Shown: positions 44,760 through 59,013, counted from the first letter of the stretch. The stretch is DNA of 64,000 nucleotides from Alphaproteobacteria bacterium (GCA_018650465.1 JABIFY010000107.1:48209-112208); one strand, 5' to 3'. Notes: generated by a model from the letters alone, not told the origin. Numbers and translations are program-made.

Positions 44760-44887
44760 GGAATCTCTCTTTCGCGTTCTTCTTACGCCTCAAGCACCTA
44801 CAATGATACCAGTCCAGGGTAAAAAGTGTTTTTCCTTATCAGGAATTGTGAATTGACCTTAAAGCCTTGCAATGCTTTTCTAAAACC

Positions 44888-45382
44888 ATGAAAAAAGTGC
44901 TGATATATCTGTGTGTTACCTTCATTTTTTGGCTGCCAGTCAGAGTTGCCCAAAGCAGTGATTTTATCGCTGCCCGTACCGCCTATATTGAACTGGACTT
45001 CAAACTTGCCGCACAGCTGTTTCTGGAATTGGCGCGGGAGGGTGATCATCGCGGCCAAAGCTTTATGGGTCGCATGCATGAAAAAGGCTGGGGCGTTCAA
45101 CAGGACTTGCCCGAATCTATTCGCTGGCACCAGTTGGCAGCCAAACAGGGAAACGGCTATTCGGCCCAGAAAATCGCCATGGCCTACCAAACCGGCCAGG
45201 GTGCACAACAGGATCCGGTGAAGGCGGAGATGTGGTTCACAATCGCCATCCAGCGTGGTTTTGGCTGGGCAGATCGGGTGCTGTTGGAAAAAAGACTGTC
45301 CCGACAACAGGTCCAGCAAGGCCGTAAAATGGCGGGTGATTATATGAAAAAGCACGATCTGCTTTATAAGACAAAAAAGTAG
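44888..45382 (+). CDS. Exported Sel1-repeat protein (paralog 1)
   Basis: Signal peptide; G.M...G.GV.QD...W...AA.QG repeats. Confidence 0.88.
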   Translation: MKKVLIYLCVTFIFWLPVRVAQSSDFIAARTAYIELDFKLAAQLFLELAREGDHRGQSFMGRMHEKGWGVQQDLPESIRWHQLAAKQGNGYSAQKIAMAYQTGQGAQQDPVKAEMWFTIAIQRGFGWADRVLLEKRLSRQQVQQGRKMAGDYMKKHDLLYKTKK

Positions 45383-45424
45383 TATTGAATTGACCAAAAA
45401 CCCCTGCTCTGCTTTGCTGAGGCC

Positions 45425-45928
45425 ATGAAAATACACATGAAAAAACATTTGATTTGCCTGTCTCTCGTTTCGTTCCTTTGGCTGCCGGTTAATGCTGCCT
45501 GGAGCGGCGATTTTATCGCTGCACGCGCGGCCTACATCGATCGTGATTATGAAGAAGCCGCCCAGCTTTTTCATGAGTTGGCCCAGGAAGGCGATCATCG
45601 CGGCATGAGTTTTCTTGGCCGGATGTATAACAAGGGCATGGGTGTTCGAAAAAACCCCGCGGAATCAATCCGTTGGCATCAGGCAGCGGCGAAAAAGGGT
45701 AACGGTTTCTCGGCCAATCAAGTCGCCTTGGCGCACCTGCGCGGACAAGGCGTCAAGCAAGATCCGGTTCGGGCTGAAATGTGGTTTACCATTGCCATCC
45801 AGCGCGGCTTTGGCTGGGCCAACCGGAAGGCACTGGAGAAAAAGCTCACCCGCGAACAAGCCATGCGGGGCCGCAAAATGGCAGCCGATTTCATGAAAAA
45901 CAACAACATGGAATATAAACGGAAATAA
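45425..45928 (+). CDS. Exported Sel1-repeat protein (paralog 2)
   Basis: Colinear with paralog 1; shares DFIAAR, EGDHRG, ESIRWHQ and AEMWFTIAIQRGFGWA. Confidence 0.88.
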   Translation: MKIHMKKHLICLSLVSFLWLPVNAAWSGDFIAARAAYIDRDYEEAAQLFHELAQEGDHRGMSFLGRMYNKGMGVRKNPAESIRWHQAAAKKGNGFSANQVALAHLRGQGVKQDPVRAEMWFTIAIQRGFGWANRKALEKKLTREQAMRGRKMAADFMKNNNMEYKRK

Positions 45929-47259: not shown

Positions 47260-48237
47260 TTAGTCAGATTGCTTCACAATAAGCCGATTTGCCAACCAGA
47301 TGCTGAGACCCGCGACCGCCAAACCGACGGGCAGGTCGATCAGGTAGTGCCACTTTGTTGCCACAGCCTCGATCACGATCCAGGCGAAGGCCAGAACGTA
47401 AAGTCCTTTCAGTTTGGTGCCGTGGGCAAAGGCATACCAGACAAAAACCCAGGACGCCCCGGCATGCAGTGACGGCATAGCGGCGAGGCCTGCATTGAAA
47501 TAAGACGGCCCAATGGCTTCCAGCCACGGCAGACCGCCCTTCTGAAAGGCGTTGTAGGCTTCCCACATACCTGTCTGGGACTGTGTGGCGTGCAGGCTGG
47601 CCCCCTTGTCATAGAGAAACGGACCAATGGCCGGCATCACCAGATAAGACAAGGCCCCGAGGGACTGATTGATCAGGGTGGCGAGGTAAACCCGGCGAAA
47701 ACCACTTTGGTCGGCAATCAGGTGATAGGCGAAAGAGACGAAGAAAAGTCCCATGAAAACAATCATGTACCACCAATCAAGGCCGGGGACCCAGGCACTG
47801 TCTGGCCAAACAGATGCGACCCAGGCCCTGATCGAAATCAAACCATTAACAAGCGGCGACAACGCCAGATCAATGTCCTGATAAAGCTGGTCGTAACGTC
47901 GGGGATTGATCAGGGGAATCCACATTTTGATGTGAAAATGCAGCCACATCACAAGTGTGAAGATTGCAACAAATCCAGCACTCCAGCTCAGTTGCCGGGT
48001 CATGGAAGGAACGTCCTGCCCCTGCCCGCGCCGAACCAGCAAGGGAATGGCAAAACAGATCGCGGCCAGAGCAACAGGCACAGCGTAACGCACACCAAGG
48101 TAAATACGGATGCGTTCATCGGGAATGACAAATCCCGTACCCAACCACAAAGCCAAAAGCCCGGTGGTCAGGGCCATGATCAAAAGAACGCCCAGCTCGG
48201 GTGCTTGTTTTAACAGATGCCAACTGCGGGTGATCAT
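47260..48237 (-). CDS. Aur1/IPC-synthase-like PAP2 membrane phosphotransferase or phosphatase
   Basis: Multi-TM; Y...PA.GP, AAMPSLH and WHY.ID motifs. ATGA overlap with the upstream gene. Confidence 0.78.
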   Translation of the reverse strand: MITRSWHLLKQAPELGVLLIMALTTGLLALWLGTGFVIPDERIRIYLGVRYAVPVALAAICFAIPLLVRRGQGQDVPSMTRQLSWSAGFVAIFTLVMWLHFHIKMWIPLINPRRYDQLYQDIDLALSPLVNGLISIRAWVASVWPDSAWVPGLDWWYMIVFMGLFFVSFAYHLIADQSGFRRVYLATLINQSLGALSYLVMPAIGPFLYDKGASLHATQSQTGMWEAYNAFQKGGLPWLEAIGPSYFNAGLAAMPSLHAGASWVFVWYAFAHGTKLKGLYVLAFAWIVIEAVATKWHYLIDLPVGLAVAGLSIWLANRLIVKQSD

Positions 48238-50081
48238 GATCCGGAGCCCGCAACGACGTCATAGAGCCTGAAATTGCCAAGCGTATCGGGTAGTGGTAGA
48301 GGCTTTAGCCATTTCGGGGGCTTGCCCTTCGTTAATCGCTCAAACACTGTGTCAGGGCCGGTATCCGTTGACTTGTACCAGCTCTGCTCTTTGGCCTTCA
48401 GGCAGAGCATAACTGTATCAATACCGCGTGTGTGGGCGATTTTCCGGGCACTCGCCAGATCGGTTGCGGCAAAGAAATTTATGGTATCCAGAATGCCTTT
48501 TGTGTTGCGCTGATAAGGCGTGCCAACGGCACTGTGTTGGCTGCGATAAATGATCTCCGGGCCATAAAACACCAATGTCATGATCCGGCGTGATTTGTCG
48601 TTCAGGCTGGGCTCGGTCGCCAGATACTTGCTCATGACCGACATCTTGCAGTTCGCCGATTTTTTGTCACCATGGTCTTCGAATTTGTAGACCACGACCG
48701 TCAGCAACAAAAATACGGTTGCCATGCCGGCGACGATGGCCCCACGGGCCGCAGCTCTGGCAACGCGTGTGCCCTGGTCGACAGCGTCTGCCCCTTGGTC
48801 CAAGCGATCCAACAACGCCAACAACAAAGCAGTGTAAGGCAGGATCAGCATCAATTCGGCGTAGGTTGCCCAGCGGGCCTGATAAAGCGACAGGGGCACA
48901 AAGACGATCAGACACAAGCCGACCAGGATCCACATGCGATGGCGGTCGTGATCATGCCGTACGAGATACACAAGCCATGGGCCTGCCAGTAAGAAGGGTC
49001 CCAGCAAAAACAGGAATTCCCGCAGGCTTTTCAGTGGGTTATCACTGTTGATCAATGATCGGACCTCAGCCGTATTCTTGAACCAGAGCTCTACGACACG
49101 GGCATCAACTGCGGCATAAGGCCCGGCAAAAAAGGCCGGATACAAGGCGTATATGGCGGTCAGAACAAATAGAGTGCCAAAAAGGCCAAAGGATAGTCGG
49201 TGTTCCGGCTTTTCCGTTAACACCCAGCCATCCATGTTTTGTACCACCCGCCAGAAAGCCAGAATAGCGCCAAATACAGCCAGATGCACGATGGATATGC
49301 GGTCGTATCCGACGTCAAACCAGTTCGCCGGTGGCCGTTCAACCACCAAGGCCAGCAAGACAACCAGCACGATGCCTATCGTGAACAAACTGCCTGCCCG
49401 GGCATAGTGGCCACGCAGTTTCAGCCAGCCAAGACCAAGCGCTGTCTGTAGTAATGCCAAGGGCAACAGGAATTCAACGCTGACCCAAAGCCCCAAGCCG
49501 CCGATCATACCGCCCAGTAGAGCTGGTTTAACGTCAGAGGGTTTCAGGTCCTGGGCGAGGCGCAGGCCGTAGCCCAGCATAAGGACGAACAACAAGGCAA
49601 TCAGACTGTGATGATCCGGTCGGGCCGCCGAAAAATAGGACAGCAAGGCAGGCTGGGTCAGAGAGACCACACCGAGGTAAACCAGCCCTGCCCGCCGGAA
49701 CAGGGGTCGCGCCGCCCAGAACAGGGCGAACAAGGTTAGCCAGTGCAGAACCGGGCTGACGACCACGCCCCACCAATACAAAGCCTCCTTCAGCCCAAGT
49801 ATCGGGATCAGGGGAGCCGCCCCGGCCAGCAATACCAGGTCCATGGGCCGGGTCCAGTGCAAGGTGTCACCATAAGGCGTATTGGCCCGGTCAATGGTGC
49901 CATTGAACCAGTCCCCGGTTGTTGCAAGCGCCTCGACGCGTACCAGGCGCATGTAGCCGTCCGTGCCCCACAAGGCGTGATTCGGAATAGGAGAATCGGT
50001 CCGCATCATGAACAAAACCTGCACCACGATCAGCAACCCAAAGGGAAACCAGAGCGGCGATATGGTTCGGGATAATTTCAA
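48234..50081 (-). CDS. GT-C-fold membrane glycosyltransferase, STT3/AglB-like
   Basis: Many TM helices; DGYMRL in the first loop, LHWTRP.D, RPDHH, RW; soluble C-terminal domain with CxM, FYGPEI and PYQRN. Confidence 0.65.
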   Translation of the reverse strand: MKLSRTISPLWFPFGLLIVVQVLFMMRTDSPIPNHALWGTDGYMRLVRVEALATTGDWFNGTIDRANTPYGDTLHWTRPMDLVLLAGAAPLIPILGLKEALYWWGVVVSPVLHWLTLFALFWAARPLFRRAGLVYLGVVSLTQPALLSYFSAARPDHHSLIALLFVLMLGYGLRLAQDLKPSDVKPALLGGMIGGLGLWVSVEFLLPLALLQTALGLGWLKLRGHYARAGSLFTIGIVLVVLLALVVERPPANWFDVGYDRISIVHLAVFGAILAFWRVVQNMDGWVLTEKPEHRLSFGLFGTLFVLTAIYALYPAFFAGPYAAVDARVVELWFKNTAEVRSLINSDNPLKSLREFLFLLGPFLLAGPWLVYLVRHDHDRHRMWILVGLCLIVFVPLSLYQARWATYAELMLILPYTALLLALLDRLDQGADAVDQGTRVARAAARGAIVAGMATVFLLLTVVVYKFEDHGDKKSANCKMSVMSKYLATEPSLNDKSRRIMTLVFYGPEIIYRSQHSAVGTPYQRNTKGILDTINFFAATDLASARKIAHTRGIDTVMLCLKAKEQSWYKSTDTGPDTVFERLTKGKPPKWLKPLPLPDTLGNFRLYDVVAGSGS

Positions 50082-50091
50082 GACGCGTCCG

Positions 50092-51666
50092 TCACTGCTT
50101 TTCTTCGTGATATTCGGCTTCCGTATTCACAGACCAGGACGCATCCCGGTCCAGTTTACCGTCAATAATCTGATCAACCGCCATCATTGCGGTAAGCATG
50201 GAGTGATCCTGATTATTGTATCTGTGCATGCCGTTGCGCCCCAGGGGAAAGAAGTTATCCCATTGATCCAGATACCGCCGAACAACGTCAAACCGCGGCC
50301 AGGTACCAAAATAAGCCGGGTAGGTCTTTGGCATACGGATGACCACGGCAGATTTTACGGCCGCTGGTCTCGCCACATTGATCTTGTCCAGTTCCTGAAC
50401 GGCAAAGGCTTTCAGGTCATCGTCCGCCATGGCCCACAAATCATCGCCTTCAGCACAAAAATATTCCATACCCATCCAGACCGTTGATGGGTCCGCAACC
50501 ATATAAGGGCTCCAGTTATTGAAAATTTGCAAACGTCCGACCTGAACATCGGGTTCCTGCACATAAATCCAGTTGTCCGGCACCCTTTCCGCCAGCTCAA
50601 TGCCACTGGCGCCGCCGCCAAGTTCGGTTCGGTTCAAAAGCACGCCAACTGTAATGAAATCACGATACATCAAGCCTTCAGCCACTTCCAAAACCTCCGG
50701 TGGGGCTGGTGGGGAAATGCCCTTCACCAGATCCTTGATGGCCATGGTCGAAAACACGTAATTACCGGTCAGTGTTTCCTTGCCTGACGGTCCATCAATG
50801 TCGATGGTCGTCACGGTGTCACCGTCATGTTGAAAGCCGGTTACACGGCAGCCAAAACGAACCTCACCGCCCTTTTTCTCGATCTCACGCACCACCTGCT
50901 GCCACATATGGCCGGGACCATATTTCGGATAGAGGAAATGCTCGATCAGGCTGGTTTCAGTGTCCTTTTGATCGACGGATGATTTGCGCCAGAGCGAACC
51001 AATGGCGTGTTTGACGATACCGGTCAGCGACAAGCCCTTGATGCGCTGGGCCCCCCATTCAGCCGAGATTTCATGACACGGCACACCCCATACTTTTTCG
51101 GTGTAATCACGAAAGAATGTTGCATAAAGCTCTCGCCCGAAGCGGTTGATGATGAAATCTTCCAGCGTATTTTCGGGGCGAATGGGCAGGATTTGCGCCT
51201 TCAGGAAGCCAAAGCCGATACGGATAGTTGCCATCAAACCAAGCTTTTGCAGGGTGCCGAGGCTCAGACTAAGCGGATAGTCAAAAAATTCACCCCTGAA
51301 CAAAATGCGCGACACCCGTTTGCGCACCAGCATAACGTTGTCCTGGGCATCTGGATCGGGGCCGTCTTTTGGCAGCTCGACCCAGTGCTTTTTATTCTGG
51401 TAACTAATCTCGATGCCACCTTCGGCAGCTCCCTGCATGGGCAGGATGTCACGCCACCAGTCCATTACCCTGTCGGATTTGGAAAAAAACCGATGCCCGC
51501 CGATATCGATGCGGTTACCTTCGAATTCAACGGTTTTTGAAATACCGCCAATATCCTGGCTGGCTTCCAGAACAATCGGTTTGATATCCGTTCGTCGCAA
51601 TAATTCCAGGGCAGCTGTCAGGCCTGCAGGACCGGCACCAATAATGAGGGCTGTTTTATCGCTCAT
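50092..51666 (-). CDS. FAD-dependent oxidoreductase, UDP-galactopyranose mutase/HemY-like
   Basis: [40 protein letters not shown]. Confidence 0.8.
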
Positions 51667-51673
51667 GAAATCG

Positions 51674-52141
51674 TCAGGATGCCGATGCTGTTGGATTATT
51701 GTTTTCTCTGAACAGCAACCACTTTCGCACTATGAAGTTAAAAACAAAACTGCTGCCAGCAGCAAATAGCTTGGAAATTTGATACGGTACGCTGTTGGCA
51801 GAGGCAAAAACCCACAAAACGGCTTCGTTCACCAGCAAGCCGCCAAGCCCAATGGCAAAAAACAAAATAAATTCCCTGTGTGGCCGGTCTATCCGTCTGT
51901 GCTTAAACACCCAGAATATGGATCCGGCGTAGGCGACAGTAGCGCCTGAACTGAAAGAAATTGCGTTCGCCAGCAACAATTCCAGACCAAAAACTTCATG
52001 AAACAAGATCAAAAGACCGTAATCCACCGCCAAGGCCAGCAAACTGACGCCAAAATAGCGAAACACCTCACCCGAAAGCCTGTTTTGGCTCAATTTTTTG
52101 ATTTTGTTAGCCTGTTTTGACAAAAAAGGTCCTGCAAACAC
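51674..52141 (-). CDS. GtrA-family lipid-linked sugar flippase; start uncertain
   Basis: FRYF.V...A..VD, AN..SF, WVF, SK......FNF..RK..LF; four TM segments. Confidence 0.88.
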
Positions 52142-53134: not shown

Positions 53135-54046
53135 TCAGCTGCTGCCCGCACGGCTCTTCATCATCTCGGTAATGCTATTGGCTGCATCGATGGAGGCTTG
53201 GTCTTTTGCCTTCATGACCAGTTGCAAAGCATTGCCAAGTTGGCGCACAAGCTCCATATCCGATGCCTTTGCCGCATTTCCTGACATCATTCGACGGCCA
53301 ACGGCAACAAGTGTTTTACAAAGCTTAGCCTGATGGTTGAAACGCGTATTGGCGATCCGCTTGTCCAGAAGTTCTGCGGCCTCGGCAAGTTCCTTCAGAA
53401 GCCTGGGTAATTTGTTCTTGTGTTCTTCAGGCATCGAAGTGATCATGCCTGCGGTGACCAGGATTTTGTTGACGTAACGTTCAACCCTTTGCTCCTGCAC
53501 CAATTCCTGAATAGTTTCGTGATCTACACCGTCATCTTCCCCTGTCGCGGTGTGGCGTAACCGGTTCGGCACCTTGATTTGCGGGATGGGATTATCATCA
53601 TCCCTGAGACTTGAACGCCTGTCCGGGCCGATGTAATCCGACGTCACCACAAAAGGTTTGCGTTTGTTGATCAGGGTTTCGATAGCCGTCTTCATTTTTC
53701 CGATGGTCATGGGCAGCGTCAGCAGCAGATCCGCTCCACTGGAAATAATTTCTGTGACCAGTTCCCGGTTTGGGTCCCAGGTCGTGGCGATAATCGGCAA
53801 AAAAGCGTCACTGCCAATGTCCCCCTGGCGGATATCATGAAACATTTTTGGTGCCACACCACCACCCGTTTCCGCGTCACAAATCAAGACGTCGCAACCA
53901 ACACCGGCAAGTCTGTTTTGAACATCTGCCAGATTTGTCATTTCATGGAATCGCCGAAAACCCACGTCATGCAAGGCATCACGGGCGGCCTTCATGGACC
54001 CTGGTTTTTCATCCACAAGAATGGCACTTGCTTTGTGAAGTTCCAT
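53135..54046 (-). CDS. Atypical response regulator, paralog of 10122-11048
   Basis: VLICD, FLPII.TTW.P, LLLTLP, KRKPFVVTSDYIGPDRR, P.I.VPN.LR. Confidence 0.8.
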   Translation of the reverse strand: MELHKASAILVDEKPGSMKAARDALHDVGFRRFHEMTNLADVQNRLAGVGCDVLICDAETGGGVAPKMFHDIRQGDIGSDAFLPIIATTWDPNRELVTEIISSGADLLLTLPMTIGKMKTAIETLINKRKPFVVTSDYIGPDRRSSLRDDDNPIPQIKVPNRLRHTATGEDDGVDHETIQELVQEQRVERYVNKILVTAGMITSMPEEHKNKLPRLLKELAEAAELLDKRIANTRFNHQAKLCKTLVAVGRRMMSGNAAKASDMELVRQLGNALQLVMKAKDQASIDAANSITEMMKSRAGSS

Positions 54047-54172
54047 AAAATAATTACTCGAACAAAATAAATATCAAAAAATATTTGCGATAAAATGATG
54101 GAAAGAAATCAGGACTAAAAGCATTATTGTATGTGTTTTATCTAAAAGCGAAGTAAATTATCTGGCGTCAGT

Positions 54173-54832
54173 TCAGATCACTTCATCATCTCGGGAAGTG
54201 GTTTCGCCATATCGACCGAGCGCTGGTTTTTTCAAGCCGTCATATAGCTTGTCCAGCCCTTCATTCACAGTTTGGCCGGCGTTATGGAACAAACTGTTTC
54301 CCTGCAAATCACTTTCGAGCAAAAACGGGCCGAAGTTGTCCACTTCCAGCACCCACATGGCTTGTGCAATGCCCAGTTCTTCGAGCCAGTGCACGTCAAC
54401 AACCCGCTTGACCCCGCGCCCCAGTAACGCCCCGGTGCCATAACCAACTGTCGTCAAATAGACAGCATTATTTGGCACAAAATGTTGCAAATAATCCTCC
54501 CGTGACATGCCGCCCTTACCGATGATCATCTGGCATTTGGAAAGTTCGAACCACTTGCTCATCCATTTTGAAAATCTGAAACTGGCGGTTCCTGTGACCG
54601 CACCAACATCGAACCCGCCTGCGTCATTCGACGCTGCTGCGGGCGAGCAATGAAAATTCACGTTGGTCGTTGCGACAAGGTCAAGTGGTGGCGGGATGCC
54701 TTCGTCGATCAAGCGTTTGTACAAGCCTTCCCGGCCGGTATACAGCAGCCCTTCCAGATAGATGATGGTACCTATTTCCAGCCCCTGCAAATCAGCTGTG
54801 GTGACGGGCATTTTCAGATGGACTGTTTTCAT
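54173..54832 (-). CDS. Fe-S hydro-lyase beta subunit (fumarate hydratase/TtdB-like)
   Basis: L..G..IYL.G.LYTGRE, IIGKGG, WLEELGIAQA.W...V..FGP....D..GNSLF. Confidence 0.88.
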   Translation of the reverse strand: MKTVHLKMPVTTADLQGLEIGTIIYLEGLLYTGREGLYKRLIDEGIPPPLDLVATTNVNFHCSPAAASNDAGGFDVGAVTGTASFRFSKWMSKWFELSKCQMIIGKGGMSREDYLQHFVPNNAVYLTTVGYGTGALLGRGVKRVVDVHWLEELGIAQAMWVLEVDNFGPFLLESDLQGNSLFHNAGQTVNEGLDKLYDGLKKPALGRYGETTSRDDEVI

Positions 54833-55758
54833 TCGATGCCCTCCCGCCGCATATAATCCGTAAACCAGGCCGGATCGGTTCGATACTCGATTTCACCACT
54901 GGCATGCAGGCGTGCGACAGCCCGTCGTGATGACAAACAGAAACTGTGTACGCTGACTGGCATGCCCCCGGTATGGGTGCAGCCGACTTCGATGTTGCAG
55001 TCAACGACCATGGAACTGCCGACAAATCCCATGGGCCCCATGCCGATATTGTTGCCAAGGTCTTTTAATTCCCGTTCAAGCGCCGCGATTTGCGGGTCTG
55101 GATTTTGATTACCAACAATACGCAGACAGGCCGCCTGTTTTCCCAGTGTCATGCAAACGTCTTTACTGCCACCAATGCCGACCCCGACAATAGCGGGCTG
55201 GCAGGCCAGACCCCGTCGGCCAAACTGGATCATCACATCAAGGAAAAAACGCTTGATCCCATCGATGCCATCACCTGGAAAAAGCATGCGGAAATCGGAT
55301 CCGAACAGCCCGCCCTTATGGACGGTGACGATATCGATCCAGTCGGCGTTTGGTTCAAATGAATAATCAATTTCCGGCGCACCGATGCCAACATTGTTGT
55401 TGTTATCTGCACGGGTCAGCGGGTGAACCCGGTTGGGTCGCAAGGGCACCTCATGAGTTGCTGTGGCTGTGGCCCGGCGCAAGGCGCGCTCCAACGCGAT
55501 GAAGCCACCCTCGACGCTGGCTTCGTTGCCGACCTTCACGAAATAGCGCGGCAGGCCTGTATCGGCACACATGGGTCTGCGGTCATCCTCGGCTGCCTCC
55601 CAGTTTTCGACCATGGATTTCAATACAAACTGGCTTAGCTCATTTGTTTCCTGGGGCATCATGGCTTTGACACCGTCACGAAAATCTTCGGGGATATCGA
55701 TTGCGGCTCGACGCATGATCTCGAGACCGGCTTGTTCAATAGAGACTTCCTTGATCAT
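54829..55758 (-). CDS. Fe-S hydro-lyase alpha subunit (fumarate hydratase/TtdA-like)
   Basis: PMCADTG, LRPN.VHP, ACQP..VGVGIGG, GPMGF.G, H...MP, FC.SSRR; three cluster Cys. Confidence 0.88.
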   Translation of the reverse strand: MIKEVSIEQAGLEIMRRAAIDIPEDFRDGVKAMMPQETNELSQFVLKSMVENWEAAEDDRRPMCADTGLPRYFVKVGNEASVEGGFIALERALRRATATATHEVPLRPNRVHPLTRADNNNNVGIGAPEIDYSFEPNADWIDIVTVHKGGLFGSDFRMLFPGDGIDGIKRFFLDVMIQFGRRGLACQPAIVGVGIGGSKDVCMTLGKQAACLRIVGNQNPDPQIAALERELKDLGNNIGMGPMGFVGSSMVVDCNIEVGCTHTGGMPVSVHSFCLSSRRAVARLHASGEIEYRTDPAWFTDYMRREGIE

Positions 55759-57476
55759 GGCTTGTCTTCCGATCCTTCGTCCACGTTTGGTTTGATGCGA
55801 TTGAAGTCTACGGACTGGCGACTGACCTGAAGGGACCCATTGATTTGACGCAATTCGGTATACCAGGCTTGCCTGGGTGCCAGCGTGTCGCTGAAGTCAG
55901 ACCGAAAATGCGCACCGGCACTGTCGTCTCGCGCCTGGGCAGCGGCGATAATCATTTTGCTCACCGTCATCTGGCTATCCAGATTGAGCCAGTCTTGCCA
56001 GGCAATATCATAGTGGCGCTGACCCGATCCAATGCCTGTATTCATCAAATCATCATGCAAAGCATTTACGGCTTTCGAAACACGCTCAAGCCCTTGCGCG
56101 TCACGGATAATCCCGGCGTCATCCCACATCACATTACTTAACCTTTCGCGCAAATCATTCAGGTCGCCCGGTGCGCGGTTCAGGGGATGGCTTGTGCGCT
56201 CAACCGCTGCGGCCAGTTCCCCTTCGTCCGCTTCTGCAAAGCCCGATTGTTCTGCCACCCAGCCCGCCATTGTATCACCGGCAATGCCACCAAACACGGT
56301 TGAATTCCCGACACCGTTGCCGCCCAAACGATTGGCGCCATGCACACCGCCGGTATCTTCGCCTGCCGCAAACAAACCTGTTAATTCGGTTCGGCAGTCT
56401 GTTTGGAACACGACACCACCCATCATGTAATGGGCTGTGGGCACAACTTCGACCAAACCGCTAACCAGGTCAAAACCACAATCTGCACAGCGTTCCACCA
56501 TGCCCTTGAATTGTTTTTTAACCATCTTGGCATCCAGGTGCTTCATGGTGATGTAGACACCACCATTTTTGGCCGTCCGCCCTGCCCGCATCTGGTCATA
56601 CATGGCGCGACTGACAATATCCCTGGTGGCCCGTTCGGCACGGGGGTCGTAATCCGCCATAAAGCGTTCTTCGTCGCCGTTCAATAGATAGCCACCAGCA
56701 CCCCGCAGCCCTTCTTCGATGATCGTGCCGGTAATGCGCGTGTCCTCACCTGCCACCAGGCCGGTGGGGTGGAACTGCACCATTTCCATATCCCGTAAAG
56801 GCAAGCCAGCTGCGAGGGCCATGGCCATGCCATCACAACTTTTATCACCCGACGGGGTGTGATAGCGGTACATTGTCGGGCCACCGCCGGTTGCCAACAG
56901 AACGGCTTTTGCTTCGACAAACAGGAATTTCCCGCTGCGGATATCCAGCAACAAAACCCCGGCCAGACGATCACCAGTTTTGTTTTTGATCAGGGCCACG
57001 GCCCGGTGTTCTTCAAGGCGATTGATGTTGCGGGCCCAGACCTGTTCTGCCAATCGGCTGATGATTTCGATACCCGTCAGGTCACCCTTGTGCACGGTTC
57101 GGTCAAAGGTCTGACCGGCAAAGGCCTTCTGATGAATGCTGCCATCAGGATTGCGATCAAAGAAACAGCCAATTTCGTTTTCAAGCTCGTGAATACGCTC
57201 AACCGCACCGTTCACCAGAGTCCAGGCCAGGTCCTGGTTGTTGATCCATTTGCCACCTTCGACGGTGTCGCGAAAATGTCGCTCGACGGAATCGCCCAAG
57301 GCCAGAGCGACGTTATAACCGCCCTGCACCATGCGCGTGCAACCGGATTTGCCCAGCAAGCCTTTCACGGCGACGGTAATATCCAGGTCAGAATTTTTAC
57401 GATGGGCATGGATCGCCGCGAACAACCCTGCCCCGCCACTGCCGAGAATCAGAATATCTGTACGCCGTCGTTCCAT
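55755..57476 (-). CDS. Succinate dehydrogenase/fumarate reductase-family flavoprotein (divergent)
   Basis: GSGGAG, LATGG, QFHPT, ERATRDIVSRA, AHYMMGG, HGANRLGGN, SAGAHFRSDF. Confidence 0.9.
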   Translation of the reverse strand: MERRRTDILILGSGGAGLFAAIHAHRKNSDLDITVAVKGLLGKSGCTRMVQGGYNVALALGDSVERHFRDTVEGGKWINNQDLAWTLVNGAVERIHELENEIGCFFDRNPDGSIHQKAFAGQTFDRTVHKGDLTGIEIISRLAEQVWARNINRLEEHRAVALIKNKTGDRLAGVLLLDIRSGKFLFVEAKAVLLATGGGPTMYRYHTPSGDKSCDGMAMALAAGLPLRDMEMVQFHPTGLVAGEDTRITGTIIEEGLRGAGGYLLNGDEERFMADYDPRAERATRDIVSRAMYDQMRAGRTAKNGGVYITMKHLDAKMVKKQFKGMVERCADCGFDLVSGLVEVVPTAHYMMGGVVFQTDCRTELTGLFAAGEDTGGVHGANRLGGNGVGNSTVFGGIAGDTMAGWVAEQSGFAEADEGELAAAVERTSHPLNRAPGDLNDLRERLSNVMWDDAGIIRDAQGLERVSKAVNALHDDLMNTGIGSGQRHYDIAWQDWLNLDSQMTVSKMIIAAAQARDDSAGAHFRSDFSDTLAPRQAWYTELRQINGSLQVSRQSVDFNRIKPNVDEGSEDKP

Positions 57477-57844
57477 CAGTCGACGCCCCCAAATGCTGAC
57501 AGCAGAAAGACAATCCCCACTGCCAGAGCAAAACCTGACGCCAGGGCGATAAATGTTTTTTGACTGTTTTGCCAGGGCAGGAATTCAAGCGCCAGCAAGC
57601 GAAGCCCGCCGGCGAAATGAGCCGCGAATAAAACGACCAGAATGGTTTCGGCTATCTTCACCAATGGCGTGTCAGCCCAGGTTAAAAAACGGTCCAGTTG
57701 GCGAGGGTCATCAAGGGCCTGGCTCAGCACCAACAAATGAACCGGCAGGAATATCACCAACGTCAATCCTGAAATGCGGTGCAAGGCAAAAGCCCACCAG
57801 GCCGGGTGATGACGGGCGGCCCAGGGTTTTTGCAGCATGGTCAT
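57476..57844 (-). CDS. SdhC-like cytochrome b membrane anchor
   Basis: LHRISG, three TM helices, H..GGLR heme ligand; ATGA overlap. Confidence 0.85.
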   Translation of the reverse strand: MTMLQKPWAARHHPAWWAFALHRISGLTLVIFLPVHLLVLSQALDDPRQLDRFLTWADTPLVKIAETILVVLFAAHFAGGLRLLALEFLPWQNSQKTFIALASGFALAVGIVFLLSAFGGVD

Positions 57845-58188
57845 GCGATAGCTCTGATTGTCTGGAGGCCGAAGATCAAGACCAGGGCCAGCAGGCCCAA
57901 GGCGAACGTATTGATTGAGCGCCCGGGCAAAGTCGTCATTTCCTGCAGGATGTTGCGAAACCCCAGTGCCCCGTGAACCCCGGCGGCAACAAAAAACAAT
58001 CCGTACATGACCGGCCACATAAAGGAGGACTGTGTTCGGCCCAGCATTTCAGACGTACTCAAGCCGCCTTGTACAGCGTAGATCATGACACCAAGGTGAA
58101 CGATGACCAGCGGGGCCAGGACCAGGGCGCTGAGGCGTTGCAGGACAAAGGCCCAGGTCTCCCGATAGGTTTCTTTATGCTGCGTCAT
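57841..58188 (-). CDS. SdhD-like membrane anchor
   Basis: QRLSA, three TM helices, H...G.R.I..E; ATGA overlap. Confidence 0.85.
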   Translation of the reverse strand: MTQHKETYRETWAFVLQRLSALVLAPLVIVHLGVMIYAVQGGLSTSEMLGRTQSSFMWPVMYGLFFVAAGVHGALGFRNILQEMTTLPGRSINTFALGLLALVLIFGLQTIRAIA

Positions 58189-58946
58189 GAGCGACCTGCC
58201 AATGCCAGCAAAAATGACTTTCGTTTTAGTCCGGCGATCGAAGCGGTTGGATTGAGATGCTTTGGGCATAATTCAGCACAAGACTGATGGCTATGGCAAG
58301 ACAGGCAGCCGCTTTCACCGGCCACTGCTTTCAGATGCTCCTTTGGGCTGGCTTCGCGTTCGTCGTTGACCAGGGTCCAGACCCGGTTCAGGGCCGCCGG
58401 GCCAAGATAATCGGCGCGCCAGGCAACTGTGTCGCAAGCGGCGTAACAAACGGCGCAGCCAATACATTCAATTGCCACATCCGCAGTCCGACGAGCCCGG
58501 CTGTCGGGCTTTACAGGGGCCATCGTCTGTTGATCCACATTCCGGTCTGGCACGAACTGCGCCCCGGCCTCGGCCCATTTGTCAAAGAACGGTGCCATAT
58601 CGGTGGCCAGATCCTTGATGATCGGCAGGTTTCGCAAAGGAGCGATAGTCAGTTCATTGCCATCAACAACCGTTCCAATGCGGGTCCGACAGGTCCAGCG
58701 AGGTTTGCCCTGAACTGTCATGGCGCACGTACCGCACATACCCACCCGGCAGGCATAGCGATAGGACAAATCTGGATCGCGATGACGTTGTATCCAGGTC
58801 ACAACGTCCAGCACGGTCTGGCTGTTACGGACGGGTACTTCCCAAGTTTGCCACGCGCCATCAGGCTGCAAATCATCATCGGAAGCACTGGCTTCGCTCC
58901 GCCAGATATGGACGGTTAGTTCGCGTTGATCTGAATTATTGTCCAC
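58185..58946 (-). CDS. SdhB/FrdB-like iron-sulfur subunit
   Basis: CRVGMCGTC..C (2Fe-2S), CIGCAVCYAAC (4Fe-4S), CHSHQSCAELCP (3Fe-4S). GTG 58946 follows a G-rich RBS. Confidence 0.92.
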   Translation of the reverse strand: MDNNSDQRELTVHIWRSEASASDDDLQPDGAWQTWEVPVRNSQTVLDVVTWIQRHRDPDLSYRYACRVGMCGTCAMTVQGKPRWTCRTRIGTVVDGNELTIAPLRNLPIIKDLATDMAPFFDKWAEAGAQFVPDRNVDQQTMAPVKPDSRARRTADVAIECIGCAVCYAACDTVAWRADYLGPAALNRVWTLVNDEREASPKEHLKAVAGESGCLSCHSHQSCAELCPKHLNPTASIAGLKRKSFLLALAGRS

Positions 58947-59013
58947 CCTGCCCCCTTCCGCTTTCGGCAATCAGAATAGGGACAACGATCCTCCTTTGGA
59001 ACACCTGGCCCTC

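Follow-up and report, generated by a model that had tools for sequence, protein, structure and literature searches.

A four-gene operon predicted to decorate periplasmic proteins, with the Flp pilin as candidate target

What could an alphaproteobacterium do with four adjacent genes that encode a GtrA-family membrane protein, a mutase-like flavoenzyme, a membrane glycosyltransferase of the GT-C type and a PAP2_3 enzyme resembling yeast Aur1? These genes lie together in a 64,000-nucleotide stretch of DNA (GCA_018650465.1, JABIFY010000107.1:48209-112208), which we call the window. The initial annotation of this DNA proposed that they form an operon making a bacterial analogue of glycosyl-inositol-phosphoceramides, and kept protein glycosylation as a secondary idea. 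Protein glycosylation is now the better supported of the two, and gene neighbourhoods point to Flp pilins as acceptors. The GT-C enzyme, the relationship of the flavoenzyme to UDP-galactopyranose mutase (UGM), the Aur1 triad, the co-occurrence of the genes and the absence of a GT2 glycosyltransferase all stood, while the inositol-phosphoceramide analogue did not.

Our best explanation is that the operon is a kit for decorating proteins in the periplasm, the likely target being the Flp pilin of the Tad pilus: a furanose would be transferred from a polyprenyl carrier without the help of a sequon, and the PAP2_3 enzyme would add a phospho-headgroup. We give this reading a probability of about 0.48. 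Folds, conserved residues and gene neighbourhoods were computed, and from these we infer the reaction steps. Our model suggests that the membrane-associated flavoenzyme would convert a UDP-pyranose into a UDP-furanose, the sugar perhaps not being galactose. A polyprenol-type GT2 encoded elsewhere would most likely place the furanose on undecaprenyl phosphate; alternatively, the flavoenzyme itself would do so. GtrA would carry the lipid-linked donor over the inner membrane, and the GT-C enzyme would give the sugar to a membrane-held pilin lacking an N-X-S/T sequon, on Asn or on Ser/Thr. Finally, the Aur1-like enzyme would move a phospho-headgroup, not necessarily inositol, from a glycerophospholipid onto the pilin or its new sugar, and diacylglycerol would be released.

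The gene set and its GT-C transferase

We conclude that the operon is a real, conserved and undescribed variant of three-component extracytoplasmic glycosylation. Its distinct parts are an AglB-fold transferase without a sequon pocket, a UGM-fold flavoenzyme in the place of GtrB, and an Aur1-fold phosphotransferase. Searches of openly available full texts yielded no description of the flavoenzyme family PRK07208, of this GT-C family or of a PAP2_3 enzyme acting on pilins.

The four open reading frames (ORFs) run in the same direction (Table 1), and the motifs first read in them, HYLID included, were confirmed. As originally described, the intergenic gaps are 7 and 10 nt and the GT-C and PAP2_3 genes overlap by ATGA. 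The GtrA and GT-C genes start with GTG and TTG, respectively, without a clear ribosome-binding site, and the GT-C protein is called as 600 aa in the database (615 aa here), so the 10-nt gap depends on the chosen GT-C start. GtrA itself is predicted from its sequence to be a flippase, or a carrier-presenting partner, for a polyprenyl-phosphate sugar, and its gene adjoins the flavoenzyme gene in 13 of 20 flavoenzyme loci.

Table 1 Features of the operon, by position in the window
Feature	Position	Strand	Basis
GtrA-family small membrane protein, 155 aa	51674..52141	-	PF04138 E 1e-22, above cut-off; start codon uncertain
PRK07208-family flavoenzyme, 524 aa	50092..51666	-	NF005546 794 bits against cut-off 418; eukaryote-type UGM fold
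GGH flavin loop of flavoenzyme (H58 aligned to AfUGM H63)	51493..51501	-	H58 in 71/71 homologues
AglB/STT3-fold GT-C, 615 aa, unnamed family	48234..50081	-	AlphaFold2 model, Foldseek, VIA, motifs; start codon uncertain
D156-H157-H158 metal-binding motif of GT-C	49608..49616	-	103/103; letters as in A. fulgidus AglB Asp161-His-His163
PAP2_3 (Aur1-like) membrane enzyme, 325 aa	47260..48237	-	PF14378 E 2e-19
MPSLH motif of PAP2_3 (H258 aligned to Aur1 H255)	47464..47478	-	H258 in 19/19
HYLID motif of PAP2_3 (H297, D301 aligned to Aur1 H294, D298)	47335..47349	-	19/19

The genes also keep company elsewhere, as the operon idea had supposed. In what follows, G000 is the source genome, the other G labels are other genomes, L labels are fetched loci and C labels are contigs. 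GT-C was found in 6 of 12 family relatives of the source genome. G001, G002, G005 and one of the G004 copies have the four genes in the same order, and partial sets occur in G010 (three genes) and G007 (two). A Syntrophomonas locus (L043; Bacillota) holds all four genes together in another order, near cpaA. The GT-C family as a whole counts 3,062 cluster representatives at E values up to 1e-30.

Several irregular forms were seen. The flavoenzyme and GT-C are read as a single 1,207-aa ORF in G004 (contig C224; L094:8010-11633, minus strand); compared with the second G004 copy (L085), a single base differs, in the flavoenzyme stop codon, and the long ORF may be either a real fusion or an error. 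Longer, fused GT-C forms were absent among 7,992 candidates, which is weak evidence. At L134:7408-9702 (minus strand, G008:C40), an in-frame junction links most of the flavoenzyme (as far as residue 472 or so) with the greater part of PAP2_3, and GT-C is gone; this is either a deletion or an assembly collapse. The same G008 genome gave no RcpC match and retains flp. Two or three tandem GT-C paralogues stand at L023, L051, L056, L067, L068, L011, L062 and L129, often directly after gtrA and the flavoenzyme gene, which suggests stepwise or multi-site decoration. Among mobile elements, the plasmids searched gave no GT-C match and six flavoenzyme matches (three of them opened), and viral contigs gave no match to the single flavoenzyme sequence. 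With a flavoenzyme profile, the viral contigs gave two full-length matches, neither with GtrA or GT-C in the recovered part, and no self-sufficient phage-borne cassette was found in these searches.

A PDB sequence search with the single GT-C sequence returned no match, and its matches in Pfam and NCBIfam were weak (AglB core, E 0.004; archaeal STT3, 30 bits against a cut-off of 450). A profile search with the family matched the AglB core 3vgp with E 3e-6. The AlphaFold2 model, built with 103 homologues (pLDDT 94.8), has about 12-13 transmembrane helices followed by an AglB-like C-terminal core, in line with the 13-helix GT-C fold and C-terminal globular core of STT3, AglB and PglB. Foldseek matched this model to AglB (E 3e-13, TMq 0.68), with TMq values of 0.71 for STT3, 0.58 for PglB and 0.42 for ArnT. 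Aligned by VIA to AglB 3waj, it gave Z 29.1 and rmsd 3.4 over 530 residues; Z was 27.2 for STT3, 22.0 for PglB, 20.9 for DPY19, 17.3 for ArnT and 14.4 for AftD. Both the STT3-like fold proposed at the outset and a ranking of protein-modifying enzymes above the lipid- or glycan-modifying ArnT and AftD are therefore seen in the model.

Conserved residues agree with the fold. All 103 GT-C homologues carry D41, D156-H157-H158, E339 and R403. R403 would have a role in phosphate binding. The other residues supply the two DXD-type motifs and the TIXE/SVSE Glu, matched by letters and order and not by residue superposition; in Archaeoglobus fulgidus AglB these read Gly-Asn-Asp47, Asp161-His-His163 and TIXE Glu360 (PMC8342417). 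The WWDYG/WWDxG motif, which binds the +2 Ser/Thr of the sequon, is present in none of the 103 homologues and in none of 57 wider sequences; at its position the protein reads LVFYG and the family consensus is xxDxG. Our model thus predicts an enzyme that works like an oligosaccharyltransferase, yet falls outside that group by the sequon criterion. With archaeal AglB (A. fulgidus, 3waj/7e9s) and STT3 it shares the fold over its whole length, including the C-terminal core, the G-x-D and D-H-H motifs and the EL5 Glu; it differs from AglB in sequence (about 14% identity), in the missing WWDYG pocket, in being bacterial and in its donor, likely a monosaccharide furanose. An AglB-fold transferase of this kind could be useful for studies of oligosaccharyltransferase evolution and for glycoengineering.

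Loss of the WWD peptide pocket would also fit a non-protein acceptor, as in a second reading: a Gtr/ArnT-type furanose modification of lipopolysaccharide (LPS; lipid A, core or O-antigen) or another surface glycan, in which the PAP2 protein edits lipid A phosphates or recycles the carrier. Pairing GtrA with a GT-C enzyme is the usual arrangement where glycans are decorated outside the cytoplasm (PMC11127046), and elsewhere PRK07208 genes are found next to unrelated multi-transmembrane proteins and within polysaccharide clusters. Against this reading speak the AglB C-terminal core and the first rank of protein-modifying enzymes, and we regard it as unlikely.

The link to Flp pilins

The recurrent GT-C neighbours across 79 GTDB loci, which come from the best 80 of 185 matches to one peptide pattern, are Tad genes; genes of LPS clusters are not among them, which speaks against the surface-glycan reading. 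In 17 of the 79 loci, flp or cpaA lies within 2 kb of GT-C (15 of the 17 are Pelagibius/Kiloniellaceae kin), and in 28 it lies anywhere in the fetched region. In an evenly drawn class sample, the GT-C family occurs in 39 of 301 genomes, and RcpC was found in 31 of these and in 116 of the 262 others, among which is G279, marked as unpublished; kinship among genomes and loci inflates this and every other count contrast given here, and Fisher values overstate them. One locus each was taken for 35 of the 39 genomes, and flp stands within 440 nt of GT-C in seven of these 35, from four families. Tad-linked GT-C members are spread over Pseudomonadota, Planctomycetota and Bacillota; on a 57-row GT-C tree, at least 12 changes of the Tad label are needed.

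The PAP2_3 family has a Tad link of its own. Its homologues are in 16 of the 301 class-sample genomes, all 16 of which have RcpC. In six of the 14 that lie outside the host family, all six lacking GT-C, PAP2_3 is no more than about 1.5 kb away from flp or cpaA. Within the host family, RcpC was found in four of seven genomes with GT-C and in none of six without it. The source genome itself has a full Tad locus on contig C137 and a second flp on C53.

In an uncultured Hyphomicrobiales bacterium (L077:7122-11841), flp, cpaA, GT-C, a true eukaryote-type UGM (E 7e-146 to the Trypanosoma cruzi enzyme) and a polyprenol-type GT2 follow one another. Judged by its gene content, this is a complete conventional galactofuranose route beside a pilin. 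The same genome has an additional, lone PRK07208 gene (L135). The pilin of this locus contains five Asn but lacks Ser, and its only Thr is at mature position 2, a composition that leaves room for sequon-free N-glycosylation. An N-X-S/T sequon is found in eight of 37 distinct Flp pilins, and hence there is no conserved sequon in them.

A parallel by description is TfpW of Pseudomonas aeruginosa Pa5196, a GT-C enzyme that puts D-arabinofuranose on a type IV pilin from a polyprenyl-phosphate donor. On our model, the two systems share a GT-C enzyme, a furanose, a polyprenyl-phosphate donor and a pilin target; features of the TfpW system's own are a type IVa pilin and a donor made from phosphoribosyl pyrophosphate by DprE1/E2-like enzymes. 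Type IV pilins are known to carry phosphocholine, phosphoethanolamine and phosphoglycerol, and archaeal pilins are glycosylated (PMC4471445). The Tad pilus derives from an archaeal pilus (PMC6668835).

A number of observations weigh against the pilin as target. The operon is not adjacent to the Tad locus of the source genome, and none of the 11 rows of its own GT-C clade is Tad-linked. Eight of the 39 class-sample GT-C genomes have no RcpC match, as do three of the seven GT-C genomes of the host family, though a lone flp is kept in these three. In 28 of the 35 class loci flp is not nearby, and the class-sample PAP2_3 proteins that stand beside flp form a more distant clade. Caulobacter has a PRK07208 gene above the cut-off, yet its Tad pilus map shows no modification density (PMC10710030), a comparison made by the flavoenzyme gene alone. 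On the donor side, no GT2 is common to all flavoenzyme genomes, that of contig C88 (below) being of a type found in seven of 24, which leaves a loader encoded elsewhere without a shared candidate.

The missing Tad linkage of the clade and the eight genomes without RcpC also favour a reading in which the chemistry is the same and GT-C acts, at least in its own clade, as a general glycosyltransferase for periplasmic or membrane proteins, with the pilin as one target or none. That many GT-C members are orphan genes or tandem paralogues fits this as well. Against it stand the adjacency to flp in four families of the class sample, the separate link of PAP2_3 to flp, and the presence of Tad-linked members in the sister clades L061/L062 and in a planctomycete group. 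We consider it improbable and retain the Flp pilin as the preferred target. On that reading, the operon names candidate enzymes for Tad/Flp pilin modification, which could change adhesion and phage recognition. Pelagibius litoralis DSM 21314 and P. marinus are cultured hosts of the version with a GT2, with gene orders PAP2_3-GT-C-GT2-flp or GT2-GT-C-GT2-flp.

The flavoenzyme and the loading of the donor

The PRK07208 family to which the flavoenzyme belongs carries the name 'hypothetical protein', and the UGM model TIGR00031 gives it 23 bits against a cut-off of 304. Its best PDB sequence match is Aspergillus fumigatus UGM (E 7e-20). Foldseek of its model also finds UGM (E 5e-29, TMq 0.70), with likeness along the full length and fungal and trypanosomal UGMs as the nearest structures. 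We compared its residues with published UGM substrate contacts (Table 3 of PMC3624792). The five diphosphate contacts R208, Y368, R378, Y449 and Y483, as well as H58 of the GGH loop, are invariant in 71 of 71 homologues, both uracil-stacking aromatics are likewise kept in 71 of 71, and the T/W ribose contacts are invariant. The first view of this protein as a relative of eukaryote-type UGMs is thus borne out by its fold and the full set of diphosphate-binding Arg/Tyr residues.

Two eukaryote-type contacts are lost: the uracil hydrogen-bond residue Q107, whose position holds Ser or Lys, and the galactose-binding N207, whose position, less certainly aligned, holds Ile in 70 of 71 homologues. The true UGM of L077 keeps both, serving as a natural control. 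Since the Asn207 position is Ile, the sugar may not be galactose. A basic amphipathic segment (residues 130-165) is present in all 27 PRK07208-type sequences compared, with a net charge of +1 to +5 against -1 in the L077 UGM, and its helices stand where the FQ uracil contact of UGM would be. This segment suggests, on sequence grounds, that the flavoenzyme associates with the membrane. Compared with eukaryote-type UGMs (A. fumigatus 3ute/3ukh, T. cruzi 4dsg), the flavoenzyme shares the fold, the GGH loop, the diphosphate contacts, the uracil-stacking aromatics and N457; it differs in having about 21% identity, F106/Q107 replaced by L/S and N207 by I, the basic helices, an insertion of about 35 aa and ties to GtrA and GT-C genes. 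Most simply, the protein is read as a UDP-sugar mutase, predicted to turn a pyranose into a furanose, perhaps for a sugar other than galactose.

How would the furanose reach the carrier? The absence of a GT2/GtrB gene from the operon, remarked on at the start, is a real pattern, and GtrA and GT-C stand here without the GT2 that accompanies them in GtrABC sets. Of the eight GT2 matches in the source genome, two belong to the polyprenol-phosphate type; they lie in two separate operons, each of which includes a GT-C-like gene. By sequence reading, G000:C88:6640-9785 holds a GT2, a DedA-like and an ArnT-like gene, and G000:C112:85760-90922 holds a GT2 (likely fused to GtrA), a methyltransferase, a GT-C-like gene and sugar enzymes.

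Among relatives, a different GT2 appears to be the alternative donor enzyme; its nearest model is the Dol-P-hexose synthase of the Haloferax AglJ type (E 1.5e-58, below cut-off). In the 79 GT-C loci, this AglJ-like GT2 is present in 24, PRK07208 in 19, and both in none; any polyprenol-type GT2 is in one of the 19 PRK07208 loci. A comparison at the level of whole genomes covered 55 with GT-C: the source genome, six relatives and the genomes that contain 49 of the 79 loci (mainly those on longer contigs), minus one duplicate. The flavoenzyme is above cut-off in 22 of them and the AglJ-like GT2 present in 27, with both in one and neither in seven; two of the GT2 genomes carry PRK07208-like genes below the cut-off. 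On the 57-row GT-C tree, with 39 rows labelled and a few of these labelled by genome and not by locus, the flavoenzyme/GT2 state switches at least five times.

This exclusion pattern, the repeated switching and the lack of any one GT2 common to flavoenzyme genomes suit the idea that the flavoenzyme, whatever the acceptor, loads the carrier itself: a flavin-sugar adduct formed from the UDP-pyranose would be resolved by undecaprenyl phosphate and not by UDP, so that the enzyme replaces GtrB. The replacement of the FQ uracil contact by basic amphipathic helices points the same way. The counts also contain evidence to the contrary. The AglJ-like GT2 is present as well in six of seven genomes of a distant, shorter flavoenzyme clade, some polyprenol-type GT2 was found in ten of ten flavoenzyme genomes checked (a GT2-free one, which would have favoured direct loading, was not among these ten), the flavoenzyme and a GT2 stand side by side at L122, and the amphipathic helices occur also in PRK07208 members adjoining ordinary GT2s. 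No UGM is known to carry out such a reaction. Direct loading is therefore a doubtful route, and we lean slightly towards loading by a GT2 encoded in trans. A pathway to the Tad pilin with two new chemistries at once, in which a UGM-fold flavin glycosyltransferase takes a ring-contracted sugar from UDP and puts it directly on undecaprenyl phosphate, an enzyme derived from AglB attaches the sugar to Asn of Flp without a sequon and an Aur1-fold enzyme caps the pilin or the sugar with a phospholipid headgroup, seems distinctly unlikely.

The initial annotation had also raised a DprE1-like role, in which the flavoenzyme would act, again for any acceptor, as a mutase on a lipid-linked sugar (undecaprenyl-phosphate or undecaprenyl-diphosphate sugar). 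The membrane-type helices and the changed uracil contact would suit such a substrate, and a WecA-like gene lies on C39. The analogy is weak, given the UGM-like fold over the whole length and the invariance of the diphosphate, uracil-stacking and ribose contacts. DprE1 has an FAD-binding domain of the VAO type (PF01565), and no such match was among 13 Pfam families, whereas the chain matches UGM throughout; DprE1 is also absent among the Foldseek matches listed for the flavoenzyme, which alone excludes nothing. No WbaP/WcaJ-type transferase, as needed for an undecaprenyl-diphosphate hexose, was found in G000, G001, G005 and G010. Lipid-level sugar editing is known in three-component systems, namely ORF13 and DprE1/E2 (PMC11127046), but we judge it an improbable role here and keep the UDP-sugar mutase. 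If the enzyme did load or edit a lipid-linked sugar, this would be new flavin chemistry, and in either case the function of a large uncharacterised family becomes testable.

The O-antigen glucosylation systems of the GtrA/GtrB/Gtr* kind and the GT136 pentofuranose system (PMC11127046) resemble the operon in their lipid-linked monosaccharide, small flippase, GT-C enzyme and auxiliary sugar editor. In contrast to them, the operon has no GtrB or polyprenyl-phosphoribose synthase, its editor is a UGM-fold flavoprotein and not an SDR or DprE1, and it has an AglB-fold transferase, an extra PAP2_3 and a predicted protein acceptor.

The Aur1-like enzyme, the lipid model and the surroundings

A PAP2_3 profile matches yeast Aur1 with E 1e-5, and the H-H-D catalytic triad first suspected from the MPSLH and HY..D motifs is present as H258, H297 and D301 in 19 of 19 sequences (for the Aur1 triad, see PMC13133130). 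A role in carrier recycling, the earlier alternative, is weakly supported, because the two phosphate-binding arginines of PAP2 phosphatases are replaced. In those phosphatases, PgpB among them, motif C1 is KX6RP and motif C3 is SRX5HX3D. Here C1 reads K104-X6-N111-P112 (Asn in 18 of 19) and position 291 in C3 holds Ser or Ala, a pattern more in keeping with a phosphodiester transferase than with a carrier phosphatase, and one that also counts against the LPS reading. From its sequence, the enzyme is predicted to be a phospholipid-headgroup phosphotransferase. The source genome has a further PAP2_3 gene of this clade, isolated from the other genes (G000:C56:17933-19069), and G001 has it too.

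The conserved Aur1 triad is the starting point of the lipid model, in which the Aur1-like enzyme would build an inositol-phospho-ceramide-like lipid and GT-C would add a furanose. In its favour, an inositol-phosphate synthase gene lies next to a PIP-synthase-like gene in the source genome (L099; G000:C60:48559-51334), and one Pelagibius genome has a 497-bit match to the serine palmitoyltransferase (Spt) model. The L099 pair, not found in the closest relative G001, suggests phosphatidylinositol in the source bacterium.

Searches for the rest of a ceramide pathway, as the initial annotation had advised, went against this model. The sole alpha-oxoamine-synthase match in the 98.9% complete source genome is HemA, and no Spt was found there; four operon-bearing relatives score 202-220 bits with the Spt model, the HemA level, although its cut-off is uninformative, since Caulobacter also fell short of it. 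Inositol-phosphate synthase is present in none of six relatives with GT-C against five of six without, and in six of 49 further GT-C genomes, none of these with PAP2_3 in the GT-C locus. A ceramide host with co-occurring inositol lipid synthesis was thus not seen. NF052609, the model of the Bacteroides PI-dihydroceramide synthase, gives PAP2_3 27 bits against a cut-off of 480. With this enzyme and the fungal Aur1 inositol-phosphorylceramide synthase, PAP2_3 shares the triad and the C-terminal helices; it differs from the systems of their hosts in that no ceramide pathway or inositol-synthesis co-occurrence was found and in that its family travels with flp. We consider the glycosyl-inositol-phosphoceramide analogue very unlikely, and protein decoration remains our preferred reading.

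The GC content of 0.50-0.57 compares with 0.53 across the 4.8 Mb source genome, whose nearest named homologues are alphaproteobacterial. Contigs from two seawater DNA runs, neither marked as a possible source, cover 30 of 30 bins of the window, and RNA runs gave short fragments in 13 and 8 of the 30 bins, which do not prove transcription. A promoter and terminator scan gave chance-level hits only. Elsewhere in the window, two Sel1-repeat genes in tandem, coding for 171 and 167 aa (44867-45928, plus strand), appear to be a recent duplication, G001 having only one. By sequence reading, positions 53135-58970 hold a response-regulator-like gene and a cluster resembling fumarate hydratase and succinate dehydrogenase, which G001 does not have at that position.

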